Shown here: piece by piece, positions 1 through 59,754 of the stretch | Numbering within the stretch: the stretch's first letter is position 1 | How the letters are laid out: the number at the start of each line of letters is the position of its first letter | DNA from: a virus | Direction: 5' to 3' (one strand) | Virus record (IMG/VR): IMGVR_UViG_3300042863_003045 | Span: 1 to 64,000 of that record | Length of the DNA stretch: 64,000 nucleotides | Translations under genes and position numbers: made by a program | Notes under the pieces: generated by a model | What the model saw: the letters and a program-made list of their open reading frames with translations, nothing else | Database searches by the model: none | Told to the model about the DNA's origin: nothing

Positions 1-1618
1 CAATATTCAAAGATCTTAAATCCTCTCTGAATTTATCAACTGCTGATGCCAATGTTATATTAGAAGAAATAGTCCATCCCTGTATGAATTCAAATTCATC
101 AGATGTGAGATAAACATCAGTTGATGATATCGTTTCGGATGTTGGATTTGGCAAAACCGGTACATATGTCGGTGAATCCGACCAAAATTGATTATCATCT
201 GGAGTTGCATTTGTCCTCGGTGGAGTTGAAGTTAAATCAACATCTACACCACTTAACACCCAATCGTGTGTTTGAATACATTGATATATCTTATTATTCC
301 AAATTACTTGAGTGCCTAAATTATATGTTATAAGATTCGCATTTCCTAAAAACTGAGGTATATTTGCAACCGTATAATTTTGAGTATTATTTGTAGTATT
401 TTGAACATTGAATTCTACACCTGGTTTTAATATATCAGGAACTGTAACAAATTGAATAACATTTGGATATTGGAAAGAAAAAATATTTAAAGGTATTAAT
501 GTATCATAGAAATCCACTATTCCGGTATAGATAATAGGTAGATCAGTTAACATTTTAATTCGTATAGATAAATTACTACCAGTTAATAATGTTGATATTG
601 TACCAACGGTTATAGTTAAATCATCAATGACTGTTGTTCCACCAATATTAAACCCATCTATTGTTATTATTTGTCCAACAGAGTATCCAGATCCAGAATC
701 TGTAACAATAACAGAATCAACAATACCAGATAATACTGTAACTTCAAATTCTGCGCCGTTTGTATCGATAACAGTATAAACACTATCAGTCAATGTCGAT
801 GATGTTGATAAAAATGATATTGTATCAATAGAACCAACTAAAGTAAGGGATACAAATTCAATATGTTCTAAATCAAGAATATTCTCATTTTCAACTGTAA
901 CTACCTGGACATCTTCATATCTTTTTGGTATGCCATTTGTAGAATCCCTATAATTATCATTTCTAAATGAATTTACAATATTGAACTTTCTACCTTGATA
1001 TATTCTATTGAAAAAATCTTGTTCGTTCCAAGTTGATAGATTTGAGGTGTTTATATTTGGTGGTAATAGAAAACTATAATCATAGATACCAATTGCATTA
1101 ACAGCTGATATTGTTTCTGTATAGTTATAAGTAGTAAACGGATATGTGAATGTGAAAAATGCGTTATCATCCACTGAGATTATAAGTATCGCATCTCTTT
1201 TAGATTGCACTACTGTATATAATCTATTTGGATCATTGAATTCAAATATCGTCTGATTAAATCGAATGAGAGTGCCAACCGGAAATTTCTCATGAAATGC
1301 AACTCCAAAAATCCATTTGGAAAAATAATCCGACCTATTATTTGTAGGTTCAATAGAAGTTATATTTTGATTTAAGAATGGAGCGTTATAAAAATGAAAT
1401 CCAAATTCATTGAAAAGCTGGAACCTTCTTAAAAATAAAGAATTGAAATCCTCAAATTCAAATGAAGGTACTTTTTCAAAAGTATAAAGAGCTTGTGTTT
1501 TAAAAGTATCATTAGAATTCTCGTGAAATAGTATATCACCTTCATATCTTTCTAAACCATTATTCCAATTGAAATTTAGAAAATTTCCTTCTTTATCGTA
1601 AAAAATAAGATTATCCAT
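1..1618 (-). CDS. Large structural protein (baseplate/tail-like); 3' end runs off the window
   Basis: Not in the ORF track. ATG at 1618 reads MDNLIFYDKEGNFLNFNWNNGLERYEGDILFHENS..., beta-rich, with a SGSGYSVGQIITIDG segment typical of T4-like baseplate proteins; TATATA box just upstream. Confidence 0.6.
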   Translation of the reverse strand, partial: MDNLIFYDKEGNFLNFNWNNGLERYEGDILFHENSNDTFKTQALYTFEKVPSFEFEDFNSLFLRRFQLFNEFGFHFYNAPFLNQNITSIEPTNNRSDYFSKWIFGVAFHEKFPVGTLIRFNQTIFEFNDPNRLYTVVQSKRDAILIISVDDNAFFTFTYPFTTYNYTETISAVNAIGIYDYSFLLPPNINTSNLSTWNEQDFFNRIYQGRKFNIVNSFRNDNYRDSTNGIPKRYEDVQVVTVENENILDLEHIEFVSLTLVGSIDTISFLSTSSTLTDSVYTVIDTNGAEFEVTVLSGIVDSVIVTDSGSGYSVGQIITIDGFNIGGTTVIDDLTITVGTISTLLTGSNLSIRIKMLTDLPIIYTGIVDFYDTLIPLNIFSFQYPNVIQFVTVPDILKPGVEFNVQNTTNNTQNYTVANIPQFLGNANLITYNLGTQVIWNNKIYQCIQTHDWVLSGVDVDLTSTPPRTNATPDDNQFWSDSPTYVPVLPNPTSETISSTDVYLTSDEFEFIQGWTISSNITLASAVDKFREDLRSLNI

Positions 1619-28305: not shown

Positions 28306-29160
28306 ATGAATGCACATTTCATAGATATAAACATAATTCTTAAACAAGATCAAAAACCTTGGATTGTCTCAAAAGATAGTCCTAATATTCCCATAATGAA
28401 AATTGATATACACCAATTCAATTCATTTAAATCTGGAATATACAAACAACATAATAATAAGATCGATTTCAACGGAGAAACATTCTACCTCTCAAATGAT
28501 TTTATGAATAAGTTGAAAATTAAAACTAAATTGAATGATATAAATATTTCAAATTTAGCAATTTCAATGCAGGAATTCTTAAACCCTGGAATAATTGAAG
28601 ATATGAAATTCTCACTTGATATGTCTTTATTCAATTCTATCATAAATACGAATGATCATATTTATATAATATGTTCAAAAAATAAAAAGAAATTCTATAC
28701 AAATCAAATAGAAAAACTTCAATATGAATTAGAATCAATAGGACTATATGTAAAAAACTATTACTTTCTTTCAGAAACTTTTTATAGTAGAAATTCAGAT
28801 GATATTTCTTATATTAAAGTAAAATTATTATTACAACACCTTATTGGATTGAAAACATTAGATGGCGAAAGAATAACTGACGAAGATATAGAAAATTATG
28901 AAAAAGTTACTTACTACGATGATGAAAGATCATCCATGGAACTTGCTAAGAATATAAATTCAGTACTTGAGAGATTACTTATAAACACAGAAGATAGTGT
29001 TAAATCAATAGTAAAAGATAGAATAAAAGCAAAAGAAAATTTACTTCATTGTAAGTTTTACACACACAATAATTCTAAAAAGTTTGAGGAAACATTAGTT
29101 CCTTTGGAATTTTCTAATGTAATAAGAACATTTGAAAACTTCAAAACGAATAGACTCTAA
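28306..29160 (+). CDS. Hypothetical protein, possibly degenerate HAD fold (start revised to 28306)
   Basis: HFIDIN, YIICSKN, VTYYDDE; C-terminal VIRTFENF motif. Confidence 0.5.
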   Translation: MNAHFIDINIILKQDQKPWIVSKDSPNIPIMKIDIHQFNSFKSGIYKQHNNKIDFNGETFYLSNDFMNKLKIKTKLNDINISNLAISMQEFLNPGIIEDMKFSLDMSLFNSIINTNDHIYIICSKNKKKFYTNQIEKLQYELESIGLYVKNYYFLSETFYSRNSDDISYIKVKLLLQHLIGLKTLDGERITDEDIENYEKVTYYDDERSSMELAKNINSVLERLLINTEDSVKSIVKDRIKAKENLLHCKFYTHNNSKKFEETLVPLEFSNVIRTFENFKTNRL

Positions 29161-30026
29161 TAATTTTTGAAATCACTTTCCCAAATTGAAGAATAATTGA
29201 AACCAAGTGATAGTAATTTCCTTTCTCTCAACTTCGTTTCTTCATACAAATCGCCATATTTCTTTTTCACCAAAGTATTCATAGAATCTGAATCATATAT
29301 CTTAGGATTTCCATGAAAAAAATCTCCTAAAAACTCATATACCGTATTTGTATCAGGATCAAAACCATCGACTTTTAAATTTAGTATTTTATGCTGCCTT
29401 TTCAAATTTTTAATATTCAAGGAATCTAACCAAATATTTTCTAACCTTCCATACTTCTTACCACATTCAGGACATCCAGATCCTCTTAGGTGAGAACCAG
29501 CATTCTGAGCGAAATCCCCATGATCTGAGCAAGTAATAATGACTTTCCTTTTGTTTGAAAAATAAACAGATTTTGAATAATCATACTTCTCACCATGAAC
29601 CAATCTCGATTCTTTTATGAATTCACTAGTTGTTTTCTGAATATTATTGTTTGAACATTTTGAGCACCCAACACCTCTTATATGAACATCCGGTCTTTGT
29701 GAGAAATTTCCATGTTCTAAACAAGTAATGATAACTTCTGTTTTGTTGTTTTTATATACGACCTTATCATAAGAAAACTTATTACCATGAGCCTTCAAAG
29801 ATTTTAAAATAAACTCATCAATATTGCTCTTACAAACACACTTACATTTAGGACAACCAGATCCCAAGTAATGATGCTTTGGAAACTGATAGAAATATCC
29901 ATGTTCTGGACATTCTATTTTAACTTTTGTTTTAGAATTGGTATAATCACTTTCAGAATAATCATAGAATCCATTATGTTTTTCCTTAGATCTATTGATG
30001 AATTCAACTAAATCAATCTTTTTCAT
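29157..30026 (-). CDS. Free-standing homing endonuclease (CxxHG repeats + Vsr-like)
   Basis: Three YDYS...CxxHG...GCPxC repeats; KVDGF...YEFLGDFFHG...IWESDF. Confidence 0.75.
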   Translation of the reverse strand: MKKIDLVEFINRSKEKHNGFYDYSESDYTNSKTKVKIECPEHGYFYQFPKHHYLGSGCPKCKCVCKSNIDEFILKSLKAHGNKFSYDKVVYKNNKTEVIITCLEHGNFSQRPDVHIRGVGCSKCSNNNIQKTTSEFIKESRLVHGEKYDYSKSVYFSNKRKVIITCSDHGDFAQNAGSHLRGSGCPECGKKYGRLENIWLDSLNIKNLKRQHKILNLKVDGFDPDTNTVYEFLGDFFHGNPKIYDSDSMNTLVKKKYGDLYEETKLRERKLLSLGFNYSSIWESDFKNY

Positions 30027-30859: not shown

Positions 30860-31363
30860 ATGTCAAAACAAGTAATATGGACAAGTAAATTAGTAGAAGA
30901 AAAGATAGATCTTCTTAATATGGGAGAAATATTGAAAAATATTGAAAATCCATTCCATGAAAAGGTTGTAGGTCTTCGTAAATCTGGACTATCGTTCAGA
31001 ATGTCACAAAATGAAATAGATGAGTATATAAAATGTAAAACAGACTTACATTATTTTGCGGAAAATTATTGTTGGATAAAAGGAGAGAAAGGAGAACCTG
31101 TTAAAATAAAACTCAGAGACTATCAAGAAGAAATACTTGATAACTTTTTTAAAAACAGATTTAATATACTAATGTCGAGCCGTCAGACCGGAAAATGCGC
31201 ACATTTCAATACAATTATTTACATAGAAAATAATAATCAAAGATATTTTACTAGAATAGGAAGTCTGTATTACTATATTTTATCAAAAAATAGGAAATTT
31301 ACATTTTTGGAAAAAGTTAAAATAAAGTTATATGATATACTATTCCTACTTGAAAAGAATTAA
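30860..31363 (+). CDS. terL: Terminase large subunit, N-part + split intein N-fragment
   Basis: EYIKC..D.HYFAENY, LRDYQ (Q motif), SRQTGK, then Cys1 (CAHFNTIIYI). Confidence 0.85.
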   Translation: MSKQVIWTSKLVEEKIDLLNMGEILKNIENPFHEKVVGLRKSGLSFRMSQNEIDEYIKCKTDLHYFAENYCWIKGEKGEPVKIKLRDYQEEILDNFFKNRFNILMSSRQTGKCAHFNTIIYIENNNQRYFTRIGSLYYYILSKNRKFTFLEKVKIKLYDILFLLEKN

Positions 31364-31799
31364 ATTCATGAAAATAATAATAATTTTAATAAAATTCATA
31401 ATTCAATTGATAGAATCATTTGAATATAGAAAAATGGATCTAAATGAAGATGATTTATCAAAAAAGATATTAAACTCATTTAAAATATCTGGATATAGAA
31501 CTCTTTCTGATACTGGATTTGAAGAAGTTAGTCATATACATTTAACACAGCCATATAGAAATTATGAGATAAAAACAAAAAATAGAAAACTTATTTGCGC
31601 GGATAATCACATTGTTTTTTTGCAAGATTATAAAGAGATAATGGTCAAAAATATATTACCAGGTCAGAAAATAATAACTGAGGATGGTCCAGAAGAAGTT
31701 TTATCAATATCTAAAAGCCATTTTAAATCATCAATGTTTGATATAACCGTTGACCATCCTAACCATAGATTTTATTCAAATGGAATTCTATCACATAAT
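31196..31799 (+). mobile_element. Atypically split intein (IntN 31196-31360, 55 aa; IntC 31368-31799, 144 aa)
   Basis: C1 start; block B LICADNHIVF; block F MFDITV; block G FYSNGILSHN|T. Confidence 0.85.
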
Positions 31800-33581
31800 A
31801 CAATAACATCTGCAATAACCATATTGCATTTTGTACTTTTTAATAATAATAAGAACGTTCTAGTTACTGCTAATAAATTAGATACTGCAACTGAAATCTT
31901 GGATAAGATTAAGGAAATATATCAAAGATTGCCTTTCTTTTTACAACAAGGAATAAGAAAATGGAATGAGAAATTCATGTCATTTGAAAATAAAAGTCGT
32001 GTAAAAGGATTTGCTACTACAAAAACAGCTTCTATTGGTCAATCGGCAGACTTTTTATATTTAGATGAGTTTGCTTATCTACCTGATAATATTGCTGAGA
32101 AGTTTTACAAATCTGTTTTCCCGACTATATCAAACATTGAAAACTCTAAGATAATAATAACATCAACTCCAAATGGACATAACTTATTTCATAAGCTTTT
32201 AATAGATGCGGAAAAACCAGAAGGTGAAAAATCATCATATGCCGCAAAAAGAGTTTATTGGTGGCAAGTTCCAAAAAGATTTGTAACTTATATCAGAATG
32301 AATAAATCTAAAATGGATCATTTTAAAATTGAACCTGATGACATTTTAGATCACATAAAAGAGTCTTTCCCTAATAACAAATCAGAACTAACATTTGACA
32401 GTGAGATGAATAAATGGATTGTACATGTTTACAATTCAGATGAGTGTCAAGAAGAGGATGTTGCAAAACAAGTAATCAATGGAATTAAGATAATAGAAAT
32501 TGCTGAAATAACAACCTGGAAAAAACAAACAATAATTGATATTGGTGGTGAAGAAGCATTTAATACTGAATTTGATCTTAGGTTTATAAACGCAGCTCGA
32601 TCTCTATTAGACGAAGGATTGATAAAAGATCTGGATGACAATAAGAAAACCTTTGTATGGAAGGAAATTGATGAGTTAAGTGATAAGTTAAGATTCTCAT
32701 ATAAAGATTTGAAATGGCATCCAGATAATGAAATATATAATGAGCAACTAAGAAAGGATATTGATGTTGTGATGTCTGTGGATATATCCGAAGGATTGGG
32801 TCAGGATTTTTCAGTAATCAATATTTTCAAGATAGATCACAAACCAATTGAATTGATTCAAAGACAAAGTAGTAGGTATAAAAATATAAATGATTTTCTT
32901 CAACTAAAACAAATTGGAATTTTCAGAAGTAATATAATATCTGTACAAGAATTATCAGAACTACTTTATGTTATATGTTTCGAACATTTCAATTCTGATA
33001 AGGTTAAGGTTGTATTAGAAGTGAATACGTATGGATATGAATTGTTGGCACACATTCCAAATGTTTTTGAAGGAAATAATAACTATGGTTCATCTGTTTT
33101 TGTAAGATTTAAACATAGATCAGACGCAATAGAAGAAAAGATAGGACTAAAAGTTGGAGAGAATAAATTAATTATGGTTAAGGACTATCAAGAAATATTA
33201 TCTGATAGGGGAATATGGGTATCAGATTCAGGAAATATAGATGAGATGACAACTTTCATAAAACACACAACAAGTCAGGGCAATGTTACGTATAAGGCAG
33301 ATGGTACAAAAACTGATGATATGGTAATGACTATTGTTAATTTAACACAGATATTCAAGAAAAATGATTTCAAAGGAGTTGTTGAGGAATATTTTGATAA
33401 TATTGAAGATACAAATATTAAAAATAAGATAGGTGAGATATTAGATAAAATGTCATATGATGAAGGAGTTGATTATAAACAACTATTAGAAATAAGAAGG
33501 AGAAATGTTTCTAATAACCGAAGACTTTCAGAAGCTAGAAAAGGGTGGGGATTAGATGGCCAAATCTTCACCACCAATTAA
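31368..33581 (+). CDS. terL: Intein C-fragment + terminase large subunit C-part (start revised to 31368)
   Basis: SHN|TITSAI completes Walker A; YLDEFA Walker B; STPNG; VDISEGLGQDFS nuclease; DDMVM. Confidence 0.9.
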   Translation: MKIIIILIKFIIQLIESFEYRKMDLNEDDLSKKILNSFKISGYRTLSDTGFEEVSHIHLTQPYRNYEIKTKNRKLICADNHIVFLQDYKEIMVKNILPGQKIITEDGPEEVLSISKSHFKSSMFDITVDHPNHRFYSNGILSHNTITSAITILHFVLFNNNKNVLVTANKLDTATEILDKIKEIYQRLPFFLQQGIRKWNEKFMSFENKSRVKGFATTKTASIGQSADFLYLDEFAYLPDNIAEKFYKSVFPTISNIENSKIIITSTPNGHNLFHKLLIDAEKPEGEKSSYAAKRVYWWQVPKRFVTYIRMNKSKMDHFKIEPDDILDHIKESFPNNKSELTFDSEMNKWIVHVYNSDECQEEDVAKQVINGIKIIEIAEITTWKKQTIIDIGGEEAFNTEFDLRFINAARSLLDEGLIKDLDDNKKTFVWKEIDELSDKLRFSYKDLKWHPDNEIYNEQLRKDIDVVMSVDISEGLGQDFSVINIFKIDHKPIELIQRQSSRYKNINDFLQLKQIGIFRSNIISVQELSELLYVICFEHFNSDKVKVVLEVNTYGYELLAHIPNVFEGNNNYGSSVFVRFKHRSDAIEEKIGLKVGENKLIMVKDYQEILSDRGIWVSDSGNIDEMTTFIKHTTSQGNVTYKADGTKTDDMVMTIVNLTQIFKKNDFKGVVEEYFDNIEDTNIKNKIGEILDKMSYDEGVDYKQLLEIRRRNVSNNRRLSEARKGWGLDGQIFTTN

Positions 33582-34349
33582 TTCCAAATTTAATTCTCCA
33601 TCTTCAGACATTGTAACAATATCAGATAAATGTCCAGCACCAACAAAATAAACACCTGATGTACTATTAATCAAAAATAAATCTCTCATAGTGGTCGCAA
33701 TTCTTGCAAATTTACCAGCCATATTAGGATATTCTTTCCAATTTTCAGGCCATTGTAAATCTTCACCAATATCAAGGAATTTAGACAATGTTTCTTCATT
33801 AGATTCCTGTTTTGACATTTCAACAAAGTCAATATCATCTTCGCCGATTTCACTAAGAAACTTATTTAATTCAACTTCACCTAAATTAAAAATACCCATC
33901 TCAGCAGACCAATCTGGAATTGTTTTTAATAGAACATCAAAAATTGTATCACCTTCTTCAGTGTATTCTATAAGATTTTCTAATCTTTTGTTTTCTTTTG
34001 GGTTTGAAAATAATGAATAAAGAAATACATATTCTTTATCTTTTGGTATTTCACCACTTTCAATTAACTTTTTATCCCAAGAACCCATATATTTATCAGG
34101 ATCTAATTTATCATAAAATGATGATTTAGTTATTGCTTCATTATATTCCAATCCAATTCCTTCACCATAATAACCATATTTGTTAGCTACCTCAAGAATA
34201 TCACTAATCAAATCTTCAGATAACTCTAATGGTTCTTGGTGCATATCACCAACTAAGATTTTTTTATCATTAAACTTAATAACACCATAAGGAGCGACTT
34301 TTGAATTTAGATTAAATTCAAATAGTTTATATGTCTTTAAGTACTTCAT
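33552..34349 (-). CDS. Hypothetical protein with leader
   Basis: MKYLKTYKLFE; VGDMH, RD.FL, FVGAGHL (TraB/EreA-like pattern, weak). Confidence 0.55.
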   Translation of the reverse strand: MKYLKTYKLFEFNLNSKVAPYGVIKFNDKKILVGDMHQEPLELSEDLISDILEVANKYGYYGEGIGLEYNEAITKSSFYDKLDPDKYMGSWDKKLIESGEIPKDKEYVFLYSLFSNPKENKRLENLIEYTEEGDTIFDVLLKTIPDWSAEMGIFNLGEVELNKFLSEIGEDDIDFVEMSKQESNEETLSKFLDIGEDLQWPENWKEYPNMAGKFARIATTMRDLFLINSTSGVYFVGAGHLSDIVTMSEDGELNLELIGGEDLAI

Positions 34350-34426
34350 AATGATGCTAAAAACATTTCACTTTCTTTTTCTCTTCTATCTTGAAGTCCT
34401 GGAAATTTCTTACTAACATTAAATGT
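34346..34426 (-). pseudogene. 3' remnant of a GH24 lysozyme-like gene
   Basis: TFNVSKKFPGLQDRREKESEMFLASL*; matches the GLxxRRxxExxxF C-terminus; its stop overlaps the next start (ATGA). Confidence 0.5.
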
Positions 34427-34440
34427 TAAATTCTTTTAAA

Positions 34441-35289
34441 TCAAATATCACTTTTCAATTGTAAAGGTTTACAATTTTCTTGTGTAAAATCTTTTTCTAA
34501 AACCGGCATTTCAATACCATTTACTTTTAGGCTACCATTACCACAAGTAGCTTCTGGAATATATTGTTTAATAAAGTTAGCTATTTTGTTTTTTGAAACT
34601 AAATCCATACCAACTAATTTAACTCCTTCAAACTTCTTAGATTCACCATCGTTATAACCTTGCCAACTTTCATAGTATGTTGCTTTGAAGTCATTTTCAA
34701 TTGATTTTTTTAGTATTATTATACCCTCTTTATTAATCATAATTTCAAATGGTGCCTCTTCTTTTTCAAAGTTGTTGAAACTGGTGGCGATGGATCCAAT
34801 ATGGATATTATAATTTTTACTCCAAACGCCTTGGAATGAGGGGCTATCTATTTCATCAGCTGTATTAAATCTACCAATAAATGGCTGATGTTTTTCATCA
34901 AATCCAAGTTCGAGGTCGTACCAATCCCATAAATTATATTTATTATTTGCAAGTTCACCTATGATAAATTCAACTCTATTAAGAAAACAACCTTCGATTT
35001 CCTCTGAAGTAAAATAAAAATTCAACTTTTCATCACTAAATTCTTTTGCTAAACTATATCTTTTCTGAGATAATTCTTTATTTTGTTTATAAATAGGATC
35101 TTTCAACAACGGGTCCAACCTTTCTTCTTCTTCAGCTTTCTTTTTTTTATAGTTTTCTTCTTGGTTTCTTTGGTTTATCATATTATCAGCTGCTGTACCA
35201 ATCCTTTGTTCTTGTGGAGTATTTCTATTACCTGCTTTTCCAACTAGATACTCTGGACTAAGTTCTTCGTATGTTTTTAAGTATTTCAT
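34441..35289 (-). CDS. Hypothetical protein with leader (cassette cargo)
   Basis: MKYLKTYEE; own AATATATA box; bounded by GTTAAAT (34425) and the attC-like site. Confidence 0.65.
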   Translation of the reverse strand: MKYLKTYEELSPEYLVGKAGNRNTPQEQRIGTAADNMINQRNQEENYKKKKAEEEERLDPLLKDPIYKQNKELSQKRYSLAKEFSDEKLNFYFTSEEIEGCFLNRVEFIIGELANNKYNLWDWYDLELGFDEKHQPFIGRFNTADEIDSPSFQGVWSKNYNIHIGSIATSFNNFEKEEAPFEIMINKEGIIILKKSIENDFKATYYESWQGYNDGESKKFEGVKLVGMDLVSKNKIANFIKQYIPEATCGNGSLKVNGIEMPVLEKDFTQENCKPLQLKSDI

Positions 35290-35330
35290 AATTACAATTT
35301 TTTTATATTCTATATATTAATAAAAAAAAC

Positions 35331-35384
35331 GGTTAACAAATGATAAACAACATTAAAACGATTGTTTATCATCGGACGTTATAA
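35331..35384. mobile_element. attC-like integron recombination site (54 bp)
   Basis: GGTTAAC-AA-ATGATAAACAA-loop-TTGTTTATCAT-CGGAC-GTTATAA; perfect 11 bp arms between AAC and GTT. Confidence 0.7.
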
Positions 35385-35628
35385 GTAATTATATAAAAAA
35401 TAACCACCTACAAAAACAATAAGATATACCATAAACCCATACCACCCAATTTTATGAGACATCCTATGTAATCTCATTGTTTCATCACTTTGTTTTCCGT
35501 AAACAGGTGGCAATCCTGGCAATGACATAAAATAAAGGACTAAAAATATCAATCCCATTAATACTATAAATACTATAAATGTTAATTCTTCTACCATATT
35601 TTTATTTTTTTATATAACTACTTATAAC
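35378..35628. mobile_element. Gene cassette with complementary ends
   Basis: GTTATAAGTAATTATATAAAAAA (35378-35400) vs reverse complement of 35606-35628: 22/23 identical. Confidence 0.7.
35379..35597 (-). CDS. Small two-TM membrane protein (cassette cargo)
   Basis: Two hydrophobic helices; stop codon lies inside the TAAC core. Confidence 0.65.
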   Translation of the reverse strand: MVEELTFIVFIVLMGLIFLVLYFMSLPGLPPVYGKQSDETMRLHRMSHKIGWYGFMVYLIVFVGGYFLYNYL

Positions 35629-35675
35629 AACAAATATAAGAAATAAATTTTGTTTTATCTATTTTTTCTAATTCG

Positions 35676-36584
35676 TCACTCAACTGTTAGAATATAATTC
35701 TTAACACCCGCATTTGGAATAGCCAAAACATTTCCAAGACTCATCTGTTCCATCACCCATTTATGTCTCATAGGTTCTCTATTTTTAACCTTACCAGTTT
35801 CCAACCAAAGATTCATGAATCCACCCTTTGAATATCCTTCAAATTTAAATCCCAAACTATCCATACTATTTCCAATATTGTGATCATAATCAGAATAAAA
35901 CTTAATATATTTTACATTTACAACATTGTCTCCAATTTTTATTGTTTTGTGATTATTTAAGAAATGTTTCAATAATTTTGAAGAACCTCCTGATACATGA
36001 GAAAACCTTAGTGTACCAACTCTTATGATCTCGATATAATCATTATTCTTTCCAAAGAAATTCTTACCAAAAGTATATAACATAACCAAAGTTCCAGCAG
36101 GAATTCCGTTCTTTTCTTTTCTTGTGAACAATCCAAGATTTAAACTAGCTCCTCTTTTCCCATAAAAACAATTTATAGATTCAAACTCTCTTGCCACTTT
36201 AGAATCCACTATTCGTACTTCACACTCTCTCGCATAAAACTGATTAGGAGTTTTCTCAGCAGCGTGTAAGATATATGATTTTAAAACTTCTTTCTTATTC
36301 TCATCATTCCACTCAAAATCTTTTATCCAAAGTTTAAATGAGTTATTCTTCTCAGATTCAACACTTAGGTTATAAAAATAATTTTTATCAACTCCTTCAA
36401 TATTATATTTCGAATAAGCAATCGGAAATTTCTCAGAAGGAACATATTCTATTTGATAACTACGTCTTCCACCAGGATTATCATGCCACAAAGAGAAATT
36501 TAAATTCTCTCTTTTATAATCAATATTATTTTCATCTAGAAAACCTTTTATTTCTTCTATATTTTGTAAATCTTTTTCGCTCAT
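35676..36584 (-). CDS. Hef-derived protein: eroded nuclease + GNAT/Mom-like domain
   Basis: FYARECEVR, EIIRV, GGSSKLL, FYSD, LGFKF; lacks the EFNGxxWH nuclease motif and the N-terminal repeats. Confidence 0.55.
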   Translation of the reverse strand: MSEKDLQNIEEIKGFLDENNIDYKRENLNFSLWHDNPGGRRSYQIEYVPSEKFPIAYSKYNIEGVDKNYFYNLSVESEKNNSFKLWIKDFEWNDENKKEVLKSYILHAAEKTPNQFYARECEVRIVDSKVAREFESINCFYGKRGASLNLGLFTRKEKNGIPAGTLVMLYTFGKNFFGKNNDYIEIIRVGTLRFSHVSGGSSKLLKHFLNNHKTIKIGDNVVNVKYIKFYSDYDHNIGNSMDSLGFKFEGYSKGGFMNLWLETGKVKNREPMRHKWVMEQMSLGNVLAIPNAGVKNYILTVE

Positions 36585-42632: not shown

Positions 42633-45600
42633 TTATTCCAATTTGTTTAATTTTGAAAATTTAACATCTATCTTTGAATAATCTACTGCATAATATCCAT
42701 TTTTATCATCCACAAGAGCTGATTCAAATTCTGTTCCTATAAGTTCTTGTGCAATAACACCCACATAAATCTGATGTGAATTGAATTTGTATGTGAACTC
42801 ATATATGTTTATTCCAAGAGGAGAAGTTCCTATTTTTCTTATAATGTTTTTAAGTCTTCTATCAGAAGAAGATACTTGTATATTCCTTTCATTTGTTGAG
42901 TTGTCCATTAAATAATTCCTAAGATCACCACTTACAACACTTGAAATACTTGATAAAATACCCGTCATATTATCCATTTTTTTACCAAGTTTCTGCAGCT
43001 CAACTATATTAGGATCAGATTTAGAAGTTCCACCAGATGTTTTTACTGTACTTTTTTCACTTGTTGATTTTTTCTGATCTTCAAAATCCTTTATTAATTC
43101 AGCAAATACACCACCCTTTTCTTCTATCCTGGTAAGAACATCTTCCAACATATCAGGATCCATAAGTGATAGCATAATCATATTACTCGACATTCCCTTT
43201 ACCAATGAAAGTTTCTCAACATCCAATCCTTGAATAGAATTAGAAAATTTATTCATAGTAGATCCTAATTTATCAAAGGCAATTGCCAACATTGTTATAT
43301 TTGAGACAGCTTGTTCTAATGGAGTTTTTCCACCGAAAAAAGATGAAATACTCCCCATTATTCCACCAGAACCCAATCCACTGAAATTAAGTAATGAAAT
43401 TATATCTTGAAATTTCTGAAGCGCATAAATAGTTCCATCAATCCATTCTGGTTTTGGATATTTAGTATAATCCCCTTTCGATATTTCTAATGATATCTCA
43501 TTTATGGATTCACCAATTGATTTTAAAGTGCTCTTTATTTTTCTAGGACTTATAGACTTACCCGAAAGTAATTCAAAAACTGGAACAAAAGCTTGTATCG
43601 ATCCTGAAACCCCTCTTACCCATTCTTCTGGTGGTGGATTTAAAAAGCTAGCATTTGATTTTGAGAAAATATTGGCAGATTCTATAAGACCTTCTGTTAT
43701 CATAAGTATAGCACCTTTCATATCACCCACGGATGGTCCAGAACTAAATATTCCAGAACTTTTTGCGAGTACCTCAAAAACAGGAGTAAATGCACTTAAA
43801 GCACCACCAACTCCTCTCACCCAAGATTCTGTCGGACCTCCACTCCAGATATCACCAACACCTGCAAATTTCTGACCGGAAGTTATTATACCATCTGTGA
43901 TAGTACTTATTGCATCTGAAAATTCTTTAGGTCCAACACCACCGAATAATATTTTATTCGCCATTAACATGCCATAAACTGGAAGAAATGCTCCCAATGC
44001 CAATGATATTCCAGATGACCATTCTTTTGTCGGACCGCCTTTATAATCTCCTGTTGCTAATGTGAATGAAATGTCTGATATAGTTTGAGCAATTCCTTTG
44101 ATAGAAGATATACCTACTTCCAAAGTACCAGAATCAATTCCACCGATAACCATAATACCCATGGAAAAAGCAATTAAACTCATGCCAACGCCAGATGACC
44201 ATTCTTTTGTCGGACCACCTTTATAATCTCCGGTTGCCAATGTGAATGAAATATCTGATATAGTTTGAGCAATTCCTTTGATAGAAGATATTCCTGATTC
44301 TAAATCATCAGAATCTATTCCACCGATAACCATAATGCCCATGGAAAAAGCAATTAAACTCATGCCAACTCCAGATGACCATTCTAAACCAGGATACTTT
44401 GTGTAATCACCACTTGATATCATCTTATCAACAATTGGTATAGCCATAGCTATTGACAGTACGGCTTCTATACCAGCATCAATTGGATTCTCTACTAATC
44501 CAAGACTAAATGTACTTGCTATACCTCCTACTGAATTCACAACACCAAGTAAAACAACTGCTGCTCCAAAAAGAATCAAAGATGTTCCAACTCCTTTAGC
44601 CCAATCTAAACCAGGATACTTAGTATAATCACCACCTGATAATATCTTATCTACTGCAACTATTGTTCCAGCGATTCCCACAATTGCTAAAGCACCAGCT
44701 GCTAAAACTACCGCACCAGCACCAGTTGATACTATTAAACCAAGTACAAGTGCTGCCATTCCAAATCCAACTAAAGAAAGTCCAACTCCTAAAGCCCACG
44801 AAAGATTAGGATAAGTAGAATAATCACCTAATGATAGAATTCTAGATGTTAACATAATAACGGTTGCAATAACTGCAATAGAAATTCCACCTTTTATGAA
44901 ATCACCAGGACTTCCAAGTTTACTCATAGAAAAACTCAAAAGTCCAAACGCAAGTATAGATAGTCCAGTGGACATTCCCCACATTAAATCAGGAAACTTT
45001 TCATAACTACCTAAAGATAAAATCAATGAAGCTAACATTATTGTTGATGCTAAAATTAATATTGATTTACCACCCTTTATGAACTCATTTACATCACCCA
45101 TCTTATTCACCGCTTTTACAGCCAAAGCTAGTACTACAACAGAAAGTGATATTGATGCAGATAATAAAAGAAATTTAAAAATACTTGAAATTTCAACTGG
45201 TGCCATACCCATCAAAATCCAAGAAGCGAGAGTAACTGCAGCGGTAAGTGCGAGTATAACAATAGTTCCTTTTTCAATATCCACATAATTTACATCCTTT
45301 ATACCAGATAATAAGGGTTTTACAGCATAAGAAAGAACTACGAATGTTGCAGATATAAGAATTGCTGTTAGTGCCTGAAATAATCCTATCGGAACAATCG
45401 CTTGAAAATACCAAGAAGCTCCTACGATGGCTAGTGATAATGCAATAAGAACTATTGGGATAGCTGCAGCAGCTATCGCCGCAGTTGCAGGATCAATTCC
45501 TTTAAAAGATTCTATCAATTTCCCTATTCCATAAGCCATAACTCCAAAAGCAGCTGCTATCAGAATGGCGGTTAGTGCTTGGAATAATCCTATTGGAACA

Positions 45601-58973: not shown

Positions 58974-59067
58974 ACATAACGGTAAAGTGTATGAGAAGGT
59001 TTGTTTAGATGAACTTTCAAATTAGCACAAAAATTTTTAACAAACTTTCTTATACACCTTGTTAGCA
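58974..59067. mobile_element. attC-like integron recombination site (94 bp)
   Basis: ACATAAC-GGTAAA-GTGTATGAGAAGGTTTGTT-loop-AACAAACTTTCTTATACAC-CTT-GTTAGCA; arms match 17/19. Confidence 0.75.
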
Positions 59068-59580
59068 CCAGTACGGTTTATTTGGTATAATTTTAAATTT
59101 GGAATATTTATATATAAACAAAAACACAAATGGAATTGAGAAAATTTATAGCAACAACATTAAGAGAATATCTTAATGAAAATGTAAATATTGAATATTA
59201 TGAACACGGACAATGTGAATTATTTGCATTAGCACTACATAAAACATTAGGTTATGATATGTACTTTTTTATTGATAATAATGCAGAATTTGAAACTGAT
59301 GAGGGGTTTGATTATGGGGATGCTTTGGTTCATGCATATTGTAAAGACAAAAAAGGCAACTATTATGATGCAAGTGGATTAATAACATTAAATGATATTG
59401 AAAACGACCACGCTGAATATGTTAATGAACCAGAACATATTCTTGTAACAGAAAAAATGTTTTATGATTATATCCAAAATGGTTTTATTTCAAAATTTAA
59501 AATAACTGAACTAAATAAACTTGAAACTTATATAAAAGAAAATGTTTCAAAATACGCAGTTCGGTAGTATTGGTGCTAAC
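59061..59580. mobile_element. Gene cassette with complementary ends
   Basis: GTTAGCACCAGTAC (59061-59074) vs GTATTGGTGCTAAC (59567-59580): 13/14 complementary. Confidence 0.75.
59130..59567 (+). CDS. Papain/transglutaminase-like C-H-D protein with a distinct leader (cassette cargo)
   Basis: HGQCELFALAL...LVHAY...YYDASG; MELRKFIATTLREYLNE. Confidence 0.55.
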   Translation: MELRKFIATTLREYLNENVNIEYYEHGQCELFALALHKTLGYDMYFFIDNNAEFETDEGFDYGDALVHAYCKDKKGNYYDASGLITLNDIENDHAEYVNEPEHILVTEKMFYDYIQNGFISKFKITELNKLETYIKENVSKYAVR

Positions 59581-59754
59581 TATTATATATCTATAACCGA
59601 TTCAAAACACTTATCAAATCTACTAAAATTAACGAATATTCTTAAAATTTTCGAGTAAAAATTAAGATGTAAAAATTATTCTCAGATAAGATTTACGATC
59701 AAAACTTTACAGTTACTTTTTAAACATTTCTAAAAAAATTTGATATAAAATTCT

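Follow-up and report, generated by a model that had tools for sequence, protein, structure and literature searches.

A single-gene unit beside a truncated site in a phage contig as a probable satellite remnant of a proposed integron-like cassette system in Bacteroidota jumbo phages

Genes and sites at locus A

Locus A lies in a window of 64,000 nucleotides (the whole stretch of DNA analysed) from IMG/VR virus record IMGVR_UViG_3300042863_003045, part of a 102-kb contig of a giant Bacteroidota phage. The sequence features listed for this locus in the original prediction were all present where it had placed them, including CTTATAAC at 35621-35628. In window positions, the locus is composed of the following features.

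34414-34428, no strand: 15-nt palindrome TAACATTAAATGTTA, which includes the start of GTTAAAT; candidate boundary (read from sequence)
34425-34431: GTTAAAT (read from sequence)
34441-35289, minus strand: 282-aa gene, adjoining the intact short-type site on its downstream side
35334-35381, minus strand: intact short-type site (nhmmer, exact 22-mer, DNA fold and covariation)
35378-35400, minus strand: putative cassette-end arm, the last seven codons of the 72-aa ORF, with its TAAC box at 35378-35381
35379-35597, minus strand: 72-aa ORF, putative cassette cargo (ORF list and translation)
35606-35628, minus strand: putative cassette-start arm, a GTTA box (35625-35628) and 19 nt of leader, complementary to the cassette-end arm
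35625-35667, minus strand: 5′-truncated long-type recombination site (nhmmer, nine-site long-type profile)

The intact short-type site, site A, reads TAAC-GTCCG-ATGATAAACAA-TCGTTTTAATG-TTGTTTATCAT-TT-GTTA. Folding bore out the hairpin proposed at 35331-35384, with a core from TAAC to GTTA (35334-35381), an inner stem of 12 bp, and a bulge of 3 nt. The sense strand folds as DNA at -8.5 kcal/mol with the 3-nt bulge. Against an nhmmer profile built from copies in other phages, the hairpin gives E 3.8e-17, far beyond chance expectation. A generic scan for TAAC-hairpin-GTTA arrangements found two, compared with 0-7 in shuffled sequences, and thus no enrichment. The 102-kb contig holds only one canonical copy of site A. 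On both counts, a phage promoter or terminator repeated in the genome was rejected as its identity.

At the other end of the 72-aa ORF, 244 nt from site A, positions 35625-35667 match a long-type profile of nine sites taken from recombinase-selected loci (E 3.4e-6 genome-wide; 41 of 43 positions identical; profile positions 37-79). As a short-type copy, the same stretch was not significant (E 1.1), and it became significant once set against the long-type class. It retains the last 43 of 79 positions, namely the loop end, the right arm, TT, and GTTA, lacks the TAAC box and left arm, and adjoins the stop codon of a 302-aa gene at 35676. Judged by this alignment, the upstream edge of the 72-aa unit is a genuine, truncated site that has kept the 3′ half of the long type.

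The two arms of the 72-aa unit (35378-35400 and 35606-35628) form a 23-nt inverted repeat that is complementary at 22 of 23 positions, as the original prediction had described and a repeat search confirmed. Searching the window with the 23-nt arm at up to 3 mismatches gave 3 matches, compared with 0.01 expected. The stop codon of the ORF is indeed the TAA of the TAAC box (35379-35381). When the ends of the unit are joined through site A, the hairpin reaches -23.1 kcal/mol, compared with -8.5 kcal/mol in situ. Because the encoded protein has two hydrophobic stretches, it is probably a small membrane protein. It matched nothing in Pfam or PHROG, only two relatives were found among 5.8 billion proteins, near-identical and on tiny contigs, and a viral scan for the gene in another context gave nothing.

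The 282-aa gene had been taken for a second cassette ending at GTTAAAT, a claim that found no support: no site lies there, no family-type start arm follows GTTA, and the ends of the gene are not complementary. The palindrome at 34414-34428 matches none of four site profiles (short type 1, short type 2, and two long types), and about one such palindrome is estimated to occur by chance in the contig. GTTAAAT is thus a weak left boundary, and a motif this simple could be due to chance. The protein has six distant homologues; the one metagenome locus found to hold a homologue begins at the contig end and has no downstream site, and a viral scan for the context of the gene gave nothing. Synteny of the region with L106 was rejected, as only the leader and N-terminal codons of the 282-aa gene are common to both and the downstream gene is not homologous. 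A reading of 34349-34435 as a lysozyme stump was also dropped, there being no match in Pfam or in L078. The 282-aa gene may be backbone rather than a cassette.

The hairpin family and its linked recombinase

Site A belongs to a family of the form TAAC-G..stem-loop..T-GTTA, found in Bacteroidota genomes and on over 100 AT-rich contigs from uncultured phages, mostly jumbo phages. Its 22-mer occurs exactly in more than 116 IMG/VR stretches. Copies with different neighbours in other phages or Bacteroidota had been named as a check on the prediction, and such copies exist: about 48 nt are near-invariant, the flanks differ, and the site is the exact point at which unrelated flanks meet. A search of cultured phages gave no match, only one uncultured record being matched. 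Copies never lie within ORFs and share the orientation of their neighbours, with the upstream ORF on the same strand in 136 cases and on the opposite strand in 1, and the downstream ORF in 107 and 3, respectively. In 28 of the 136 copies, the TAA of TAAC serves as the stop codon of the upstream gene.

Both a short type and a long type of site occur. Variant copies keep the boxes and the loop, and their stems are fully compensated. In the covariation test, 11 of 13 inner pairs had changed on both sides, and the score was 0.646, compared with 0.186 after shuffling and no more than 0.17 after sliding of the alignment, a stem filter having been used to choose the alignment rows. In 140 of 162 sites from recombinase-selected loci, the left spacer exceeds the right by 3 nt, so that the geometry noted as common to site A and the site at locus B (below) extends to the family. 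The accompanying claim that structure rather than sequence is conserved stands between site classes but fails within a class, where the loop is almost invariant. G.T pairs in the stems outnumber A.C pairs by 254 to 7, which fits a sense-strand DNA hairpin and an RNA hairpin alike. With TAAC and GTTA boxes, 3-nt asymmetry, covarying stems, and physical linkage of the family to a tyrosine recombinase, the hairpin of site A is attC-like, as proposed.

When ORFs near the sites were clustered, the largest cluster was a PF00589 recombinase, whose members without exception lie downstream of the sites and share their strand. In 80 loci picked solely by a 266-aa Xer/IntI-like tyrosine recombinase (264-268 aa among relatives), 162 sites lie upstream of it on the same strand, compared with 8, 10, and 9 in the three remaining sectors, only 27 sites thus lying elsewhere outside the recombinase gene. 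On TIGR02249, the recombinase scores 150-158 bits (cut-off 265) and matches in two stretches, consistent with the absence of the IntI-specific insertion. Its nearest solved structures are XerA (4a8e, E 1e-50), then IntI4 (2a3v) and XerD. The arrays of relatives run in the gene direction and stop beside the recombinase gene at a hairpin-less junction, TAAC-TATTATATAT. In about 60 of 69 distinct loci, a junction of the form TAAC-TA(T/G)NATATAT precedes the start of the recombinase by about 50 nt.

In the 102-kb contig, about 21% of the genome, there is no PF00589 match, and the only trace of a recombinase is a 16-residue stump at locus B. No recombinase was found within the 8-kb pieces around 11 hairpin-bearing loci in Bacteroidota genomes. 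Locus B is composed of the following features.

58977-59064, plus strand: full-length long-type site with a 22-bp imperfect stem and a 33-nt loop (nhmmer and repeat search)
59130-59567, plus strand: putative cassette cargo, 145 aa (complementary unit ends)
59577-59590, plus strand: array terminus TAAC-TATTATATAT, the attI-like junction found ahead of the recombinase gene in relatives
59638-59685, plus strand: recombinase N-terminal stump, ILKIFE*KLRCKNYSQ (tblastn)

The locus B site matches a profile of 20 long-type sites with E 2.2e-20. Its unit begins with GTTAGCACCAGTAC and finishes with GTATTGGTGCTAAC, ends that are complementary, and the ...GTAGTATTGGTGCTAAC end class recurs in other phages. 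The stump is identical to recombinase residues 3-18 at 13 of 16 positions and carries an in-frame stop, the remaining gene being absent (tblastn E 0.043 when searched genome-wide, 6e-4 within the local 1 kb). Its position and strand are those predicted by the architecture of relatives.

The description of locus A as an array needs to be divided: the cassette-type unit and the sites stand, but the locus is a remnant without a recombinase rather than an active array. The suggested dispersal beyond a single array is matched in complete relatives, where satellite loci are also dispersed.

Proposed cassette movement and rival explanations

Of 40 consecutive site pairs, 50% have unit ends with at least 6 nt of complementarity, compared with 7.7% of random pairs and 5.9% in situ, and the core travels with the downstream flank in 63% of pairs, compared with 23% (background 11%); the pairs in both counts are not phylogenetically independent. 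A site appears to be owned by the gene 3′ of it, which would place the crossover at the 5′ TAAC box. Short-type copies by themselves offered too few informative pairs to assign the crossover side, and the direction came from the wider set. The 72-aa unit follows the family-wide rule of complementary ends and shows the circular-permutation feature of integron cassettes, in agreement with its predicted behaviour as a cassette. By its sequence, the 72-aa gene would be one complete cassette body between a 5′-truncated long site and an intact short site.

In relatives, single-gene units lie between hairpin sites with invariant TAAC and GTTA boxes, an asymmetric 3-nt bulge adjoining the boxes and inner stems that vary freely yet remain complementary. 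In the proposed mechanism, the recombinase would first cut and join sites folded from the sense strand, acting at their TAAC box. A cassette would therefore consist of a site and leader, an ORF, and a terminal TAAC. It would be excised as a circle, in which the two complementary ends lengthen the hairpin stem, and would then enter at the junction beside the recombinase gene. Locus A is probably a satellite remnant of this integron-like cassette system of Bacteroidota jumbo phages, a reading given a probability of roughly 0.7 from the sequence comparisons. The 72-aa unit would be either frozen in place or dependent for any movement on a recombinase gene in the four-fifths of the genome that are unsequenced. 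Among near-identical phages, no pair was found to differ by exactly one site-bounded unit; the one indel found between close relatives is not site-bounded.

Conserved intergenic stem-loops that border variable genes in large lytic phages and mark exchange points of unrelated genes have been described as promoter-early stem-loops (PeSLs), mobile regulatory cassettes of T4-type phages (Arbiol 2010, PMC2839356; Comeau 2014, PMC4122927). PeSLs are defined as composite terminator/promoter motifs mediating indels (PMC4122927). It seems unlikely that site A and the promoter-like leader after it form such a module, whose conserved sequence would let general homologous recombination of the phage shuffle its neighbours, with an incidental link to the recombinase. 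The sites do fall between a stop codon and the next start, at a median of 42 nt from the ATG, Bacteroidota-type TAnnTTTG boxes occur in many downstream flanks (promoter boxes in only some leaders), and a conserved core joins unrelated flanks. Rare chimeric cores (L035, G005), joined within the shared loop, point to some homologous or illegitimate exchange there. However, homology-driven exchange predicts neither covarying stems with a fixed 3-nt asymmetry nor unit-specific complementary ends, nor the ending of arrays at a hairpin-less TAAC junction beside a recombinase gene. The U-tract of a terminator does not follow the hairpin in most copies, and no site indels between close relatives were found. 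PeSLs, which are thought to act via homology, have no dedicated recombinase, TAAC/GTTA boxes, covarying stems, or unit-specific complementary ends.

The hairpins and the pairing of unit ends could also act solely in mRNA, as processing or stability structures comparable to the RNase III stalks that flank cistrons. The G.T excess indicates selection for folding of the sense strand, the sites are strictly co-oriented with genes, a tRNA gene in L068 is preceded by a site, and the RNA fold of the 316-nt unit is closed by a long-range stem of 23 bp (-77 kcal/mol, z -4.0). This reading is nevertheless improbable, as it leaves unexplained the pile-up of sites that lies upstream of the tyrosine recombinase and ends there, the conserved hairpin-less TAAC junction, and the shuffling of flanks at the boxes; a search of Rfam with the hairpin matched no family. 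The terminal inverted repeat of the 72-aa unit, which encloses a 205-nt body, might instead suggest a small MITE-like transposable element inserted beside an unrelated hairpin. This is very hard to credit. Target-site duplication, which the original prediction had named as the mark of a MITE, is absent, the bases outside the arms reading ..TTTGTT and GTCCGA.., and the unit is thus not MITE-like. Moreover, each arm starts with the box of a family site (GTTA for one, TAAC for the other), the arms have no second copy in the contig, and many unrelated units between sites possess equivalent complementary ends.

Likeness to integrons and possible consequences for phage gene turnover

The array of a classical integron has attI and the Pc promoter at its 5′ end, beside an intI gene that is transcribed divergently. 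Its attC sites are imperfect hairpins that carry RYYYAAC and GTTRRRY boxes; extrahelical bases occur in an unpaired spacer, and both stem and loop vary. As in integrons and CALINs, the phage units are co-oriented single genes in arrays separated by imperfect hairpin sites, the AAC and GTT boxes hold the only invariant letters of the sites, the unpaired spacer is asymmetric, the covarying stems keep structure rather than sequence, and the two ends of a unit are complementary, the pattern of a circularly permuted cassette. The primary site likewise forms no hairpin and has a tyrosine recombinase of the Xer/IntI clade next to it, and remnants without a recombinase occur, locus A being one. In contrast to the classical integron, the phage recombinase falls below the IntI cut-off, is co-oriented with the array and lies at its 3′ end, as does the TAAC-TATTATATAT junction. 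In addition, the phage site appears to precede its gene, the sense rather than the bottom strand folds, loops are conserved within classes, and the hosts of the system are jumbo phages of lytic type.

A CALIN comprises at least two attC sites without an integrase. Locus A, with one intact and one truncated site of the attC-like family and no recombinase in 102 kb, is a candidate CALIN. CALINs have been reported in phages from searches with models of IntegronFinder or HattCI (Qi et al. 2023, PMC9892861), and these may or may not belong to the TAAC/GTTA family. A further parallel is offered by Xer recombination on folded single-stranded DNA, as in the attP(+) model of the CTX phage, and by archaeal XerA, the closest solved relative of the recombinase. 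Xer systems differ in resolving dimers or integrating whole phages at dif, and have no arrays of gene cassettes. A folded single-strand substrate is likely a theme common to the CTX phage, integron attC, and the phage system.

Integrons are the textbook bacterial device for collecting and reshuffling single genes, and phage mosaicism has been ascribed mainly to homologous or illegitimate recombination. No paper describing the present cassette system was found, and the site family and its recombinase apparently form a widespread, undescribed gene-shuffling system. With slightly better than even odds, lytic Bacteroidota jumbo phages may run a platform parallel to the integron but put together in another way, with a minimal Xer-like recombinase at the 3′ end and sense-strand hairpins that precede genes. 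Its cassettes (methylases, Mom, and small membrane proteins) would cross between phages, possibly into Bacteroidota chromosomes, and seed satellites like locus A. If so, the system would provide a compact recombinase-and-site pair for genome engineering and a second, independently organised example for the evolution of folded-DNA recombination sites. It would also give a concrete mechanism for the fast turnover of accessory genes in large lytic phages, which could include anti-defence genes, since the commonest ORF families of site-bearing loci include DNA methylases and Mom-like proteins. To this, locus A adds that sites and cassettes persist away from the recombinase-linked array and decay, here with the truncation of one site.

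The 72-aa cassette of locus A

Locus A holds one genuine cassette, with an intact site at one end and a truncated site at the other; the sites belong to an integron-like phage system that is apparently undescribed. The record, of which the window is the first 64 kb, is a single linear sequence of 102,656 bp with approximately 28% G+C, 21% complete by CheckV estimate. It encodes a T4-type large terminase, and the deposited phages related to it at the DNA level are all uncultured huge phages (460-640 kb). The terminase is read as overlapping ORFs of 167 aa and 749 aa that each match terminases, and an endonuclease gene of HNH type is found just upstream of it on the opposite strand (window 30860-33581 and 29157-30026 for the terminase and endonuclease genes together). 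All genes of locus A are on the minus strand.

Genes and sites of locus A and of locus B, a second locus near 59 kb
33552-34349, minus strand: 265-aa ORF
34441-35289, minus strand: 282-aa ORF
35334-35381, minus strand: intact short-type site (site A), found with the family profile
35379-35597, minus strand: 72-aa ORF
35625-35667, minus strand: truncated long-type site (last 43 of 79 positions, 41/43 identical, E 3.4e-6 genome-wide)
35676-36584, minus strand: 302-aa gene, related to the C-terminal part of HNH homing-endonuclease families
58977-59064, plus strand: full long-type site (E 2.2e-20)
59577-59590, plus strand: TAAC followed by TATTATATAT, the family's array-end junction

Every element that the original prediction listed at locus A lies where it was placed. 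The 54-bp hairpin folds as described, the 72-aa ORF is enclosed by a 23-nt inverted repeat that is complementary at 22 of 23 positions, which is statistically unexpected, and the 72-aa stop codon is the TAA of the TAAC box. Its observation is confirmed, and its interpretation of two cassettes is partly supported: the 72-aa cassette stands between sites, whereas a second cassette, the 282-aa gene with a left boundary at GTTAAAT, is unsupported.

Directly upstream of the 72-aa gene, the truncated site is without the TAAC box, the left arm, and the first part of the loop, and what is left of it lies against the 302-aa gene's stop codon. The TATATTTG box of this half site is native to the long-type right arm and not newly created. 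With this site upstream and the intact short site at its other end, the 72-aa gene is thus a cassette body. The two complementary ends of the unit are a start arm, GTTA plus TAAGTAGTTATATAAAAAA, and an end arm, TTTTTTATATAATTACTTA plus TAAC; both carry an extra TTATAT missing from the common arm class, and they are therefore a true pair. Joined through site A, the arms are predicted to extend its hairpin, giving an outer stem of 26 bp and an inner one of 12 bp with a 3-nt bulge (-23.1 kcal/mol, as compared with -8.5 in situ). The 302-aa gene matches only the C-terminal, non-catalytic part of HNH and homing-endonuclease PHROG families, and the truncated site may have lost its 5′ half when this gene arrived.

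For the 282-aa gene, the sequence after the GTTA of site A (ACCGTTTTTTTT...) is unlike any start-arm class, the two ends of the gene show no complementarity, and the 15-nt palindrome at 34414-34428 that holds GTTAAAT matched none of the four site profiles tried. In the one homologue context recovered for this gene, no site is present. Its leader (CCGTTTTTTTT..ATTAATATATAG) and first codons are common to L106, a locus from another genome where they also follow a site; past the N-terminus, the two proteins show no relationship. In the window, the neighbouring 265-aa and 282-aa genes are identical at 21 of 23 nt across the start codon (34330-34352, 35270-35292) and have the N-terminal peptide MKYLKTY in common, their proteins being otherwise unrelated; the same motif, with the leader, recurs in L106 and in the few homologues of the 282-aa protein. 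One frame runs open through the gap between the two genes (34349-34435, minus strand; KNLTFNVSKKFPGLQDRREKESEMFLASL), and its overlap with the next start reads ATGA. A reading of this gap as a lysozyme stump was rejected, as Pfam gave no match and an unrelated gene ends there in the relative L078.

A family of hairpin sites with covarying stems

Read in the gene direction, the sites are hairpins between a 5′ TAAC box and a 3′ GTTA box. A 22-mer spanning the loop and 3′ arm of site A occurs exactly in more than 116 IMG/VR contig stretches (a lower bound), with approximately 48 nt around it almost invariant and completely different flanks. None of 165 copies examined lies within an ORF; 136 follow a same-strand ORF ending within 150 nt (opposite strand: 1), and 107 precede a same-strand ORF start at a median of 42 nt (opposite strand: 3). 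The TAA of TAAC is the upstream stop codon in 28 copies, and one copy precedes a tRNA gene. Site A is the only canonical copy in the window's own contig.

Two architectures exist: short-type sites have a 12-13-bp stem and the loop CGTTTTAAT, long-type sites a stem of 20-22 bp and a loop of approximately 33 nt. The 5′ half of a short-type variant is matched exactly over 12-13 nt at 44858-44869 (plus strand) and 361-373 (minus strand; TAACGGTTGCAA and ACGGTTGCAAATA); both matches sit in long ORFs with no hairpin after them, and each is improbable from base composition, at an estimated expectation of about 0.01.

Weaker profile matches retain TAACG, the loop TCGTTTTAATG, and TTGTTA, while their stems are entirely different yet fully complementary. 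A degenerate pattern without a stem requirement recovered copies with further stems in Bacteroidota genomes and MAGs. Covariation was measured on 29 distinct short-type sites, in which 11 of the 13 pairs of the inner stem have changed on both sides. Pairing cells amount to 96%, a percentage partly built in since the rows were chosen by a stem filter; the diversity of compensated stems is not a product of that filter. The score of 0.646 compares with 0.186 in shuffles, none of 500 being as high, and with no more than 0.17 when partners were slid, so that structure is conserved and not just sequence. Non-Watson-Crick stem positions comprise 254 G.T and 7 A.C, and the gene-sense strand is therefore the strand under selection to fold. 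Consistent with this, the outer TAACG/TGTTA helix is formed by the sense strand of site A and not by its complement.

Short-type sites with further compensated stems are carried by Bacteroidota chromosomes and MAGs (L199-L318, e.g., L208, L227, and L307), with host taxa including Flavobacteriales, Bacteroidales, Aquimarina, and Chryseobacterium. The 8-kb pieces of 11 such loci were checked for a recombinase homologue, and none turned up. In two chimeric sites (G005:C1:238772-238819, in a large relative, and L035:193-240), left and right arms of different stem types are joined in the shared loop, which suggests that exchange within the loop occasionally takes place beside exchange at the boxes.

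Recombinase linkage and exchange of units

When the ORFs of 80 aa or more in site-bearing loci, 1,471 in total, were clustered, the largest cluster (12 loci) proved to be a protein of approximately 266 aa with Phage_integrase and SAM-like domains, encoded in every case on the strand of the sites and downstream of the final one detected. It has the catalytic residues R, K, H-x-x-R, H, and Y. The protein is closest to the XerA, integron integrase, and XerC/D models, below every curated cut-off, and the IntI model matches it in two pieces; its best solved relatives are XerA (4a8e) and then IntI4 (2a3v). In the reverse test, 280 candidate stretches were found to encode a relative, and 80 viral loci fetched by the recombinase protein alone were scanned for any TAAC-spacer-stem-loop-stem-spacer-GTTA. 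Upstream of the recombinase (342 kb) there were 162 sites on its strand and 8 on the other, compared with 10 and 9 on the two strands downstream (488 kb). Where the upstream stretch was longer than 5 kb (40 loci), 37 loci contained at least one site and some as many as 7. In 140 of the 162 sites, the left spacer is longer than the right by exactly 3 nt, so the asymmetry first noticed at loci A and B is family-wide. Five large relatives (256-465 kb, four at least 98% complete) carry 1-4 short-type sites each, all on one strand and mostly clustered, lying within 16 kb upstream of the recombinase in the two where it was located; in one, a second site locus is 220 kb away.

Flank comparison among loci shows unrelated sequences meeting exactly at site boundaries. 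L027 and L089 have the upstream gene and site in common and diverge right after GTTA, and L048, L076, and L098 have a common downstream gene and diverge right before TAAC. Each unit start was compared with the reverse complement of the unit end for 40 consecutive site pairs, and 50% were complementary over at least 6 nt, against 7.7% of random pairs and 5.9% when both flanks of a single site were compared in situ; many consecutive pairs match at approximately 20 of 24 positions. Judged from sequence, such ends are taken as the signature of a circularly permuted unit. In about 60 of 69 distinct loci, the recombinase start is preceded, at a distance of approximately 50 nt, by a highly variable cassette end, then (A/C)TAAC, then a conserved TA(T/G)NATATAT with no hairpin; the TAAC box is therefore where variable sequence gives way to conserved sequence. 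Among 323 unique sites (background 11%; pairs phylogenetically non-independent), the core is common in 63% of 83 pairs with the same downstream and a different upstream flank, and in 23% of 31 pairs with the same upstream and a different downstream flank.

At locus B, the cassette encodes 145 aa and has complementary ends. Past its array-end junction, 48 nt on, lies a 16-codon recombinase N-terminal remnant (ILKIFE*KLRCKNYSQ) interrupted by an in-frame stop; nothing else of the gene is left, and junction and remnant span window 59577-59685. No tyrosine-recombinase domain was found in the 102-kb record, four-fifths of the genome being outside it. Beyond the window, a weak but recurrent tblastn match to the recombinase C-terminus (G000:C1:67230-67298 on the whole contig, minus strand; 23 residues, 43-48% identical, with a stop) lies on the strand opposite to the N-terminal stump, and may be a displaced C-terminal remnant or chance. 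Locus A is a recombinase-less satellite; such loci are real, but a minority.

Alternative explanations and proposed mechanism

It is unlikely that the sites are regulatory modules shuffled by homology, in the manner of the promoter-early stem-loops (PeSLs) of T4-type phages. Such shuffling explains the position between genes and the flank exchange, and the rare chimeric cores support some exchange inside the loop, but covarying stems, fixed spacer asymmetry, unit-specific complementary ends, and recombinase-terminated arrays are left unexplained. A role of the hairpins in RNA only is slightly less probable still: the G.T bias and a predicted long-range RNA stem fit it, whereas the recombinase linkage does not, and RNA and DNA recombination roles are not mutually exclusive. 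That the 72-aa unit is a MITE, the reading that the original prediction set against its own, is very improbable and was set aside because no target-site duplication surrounds the unit and the contig has no further copies. A literature search found no published description of this site family; the PeSL papers concern a different module, and 17 attC clusters without integrase (CALINs) have been detected in phages with integron tools (Qi et al., 2023; PMC9892861).

For the integron-like system, we infer recombination by the associated enzyme, the crossover point, and a folded-strand substrate. Each site would belong to the gene after it, crossover would occur at the 5′ TAAC box, and new units would enter next to the recombinase gene, an arrangement in which the phage system would mirror that of integrons.
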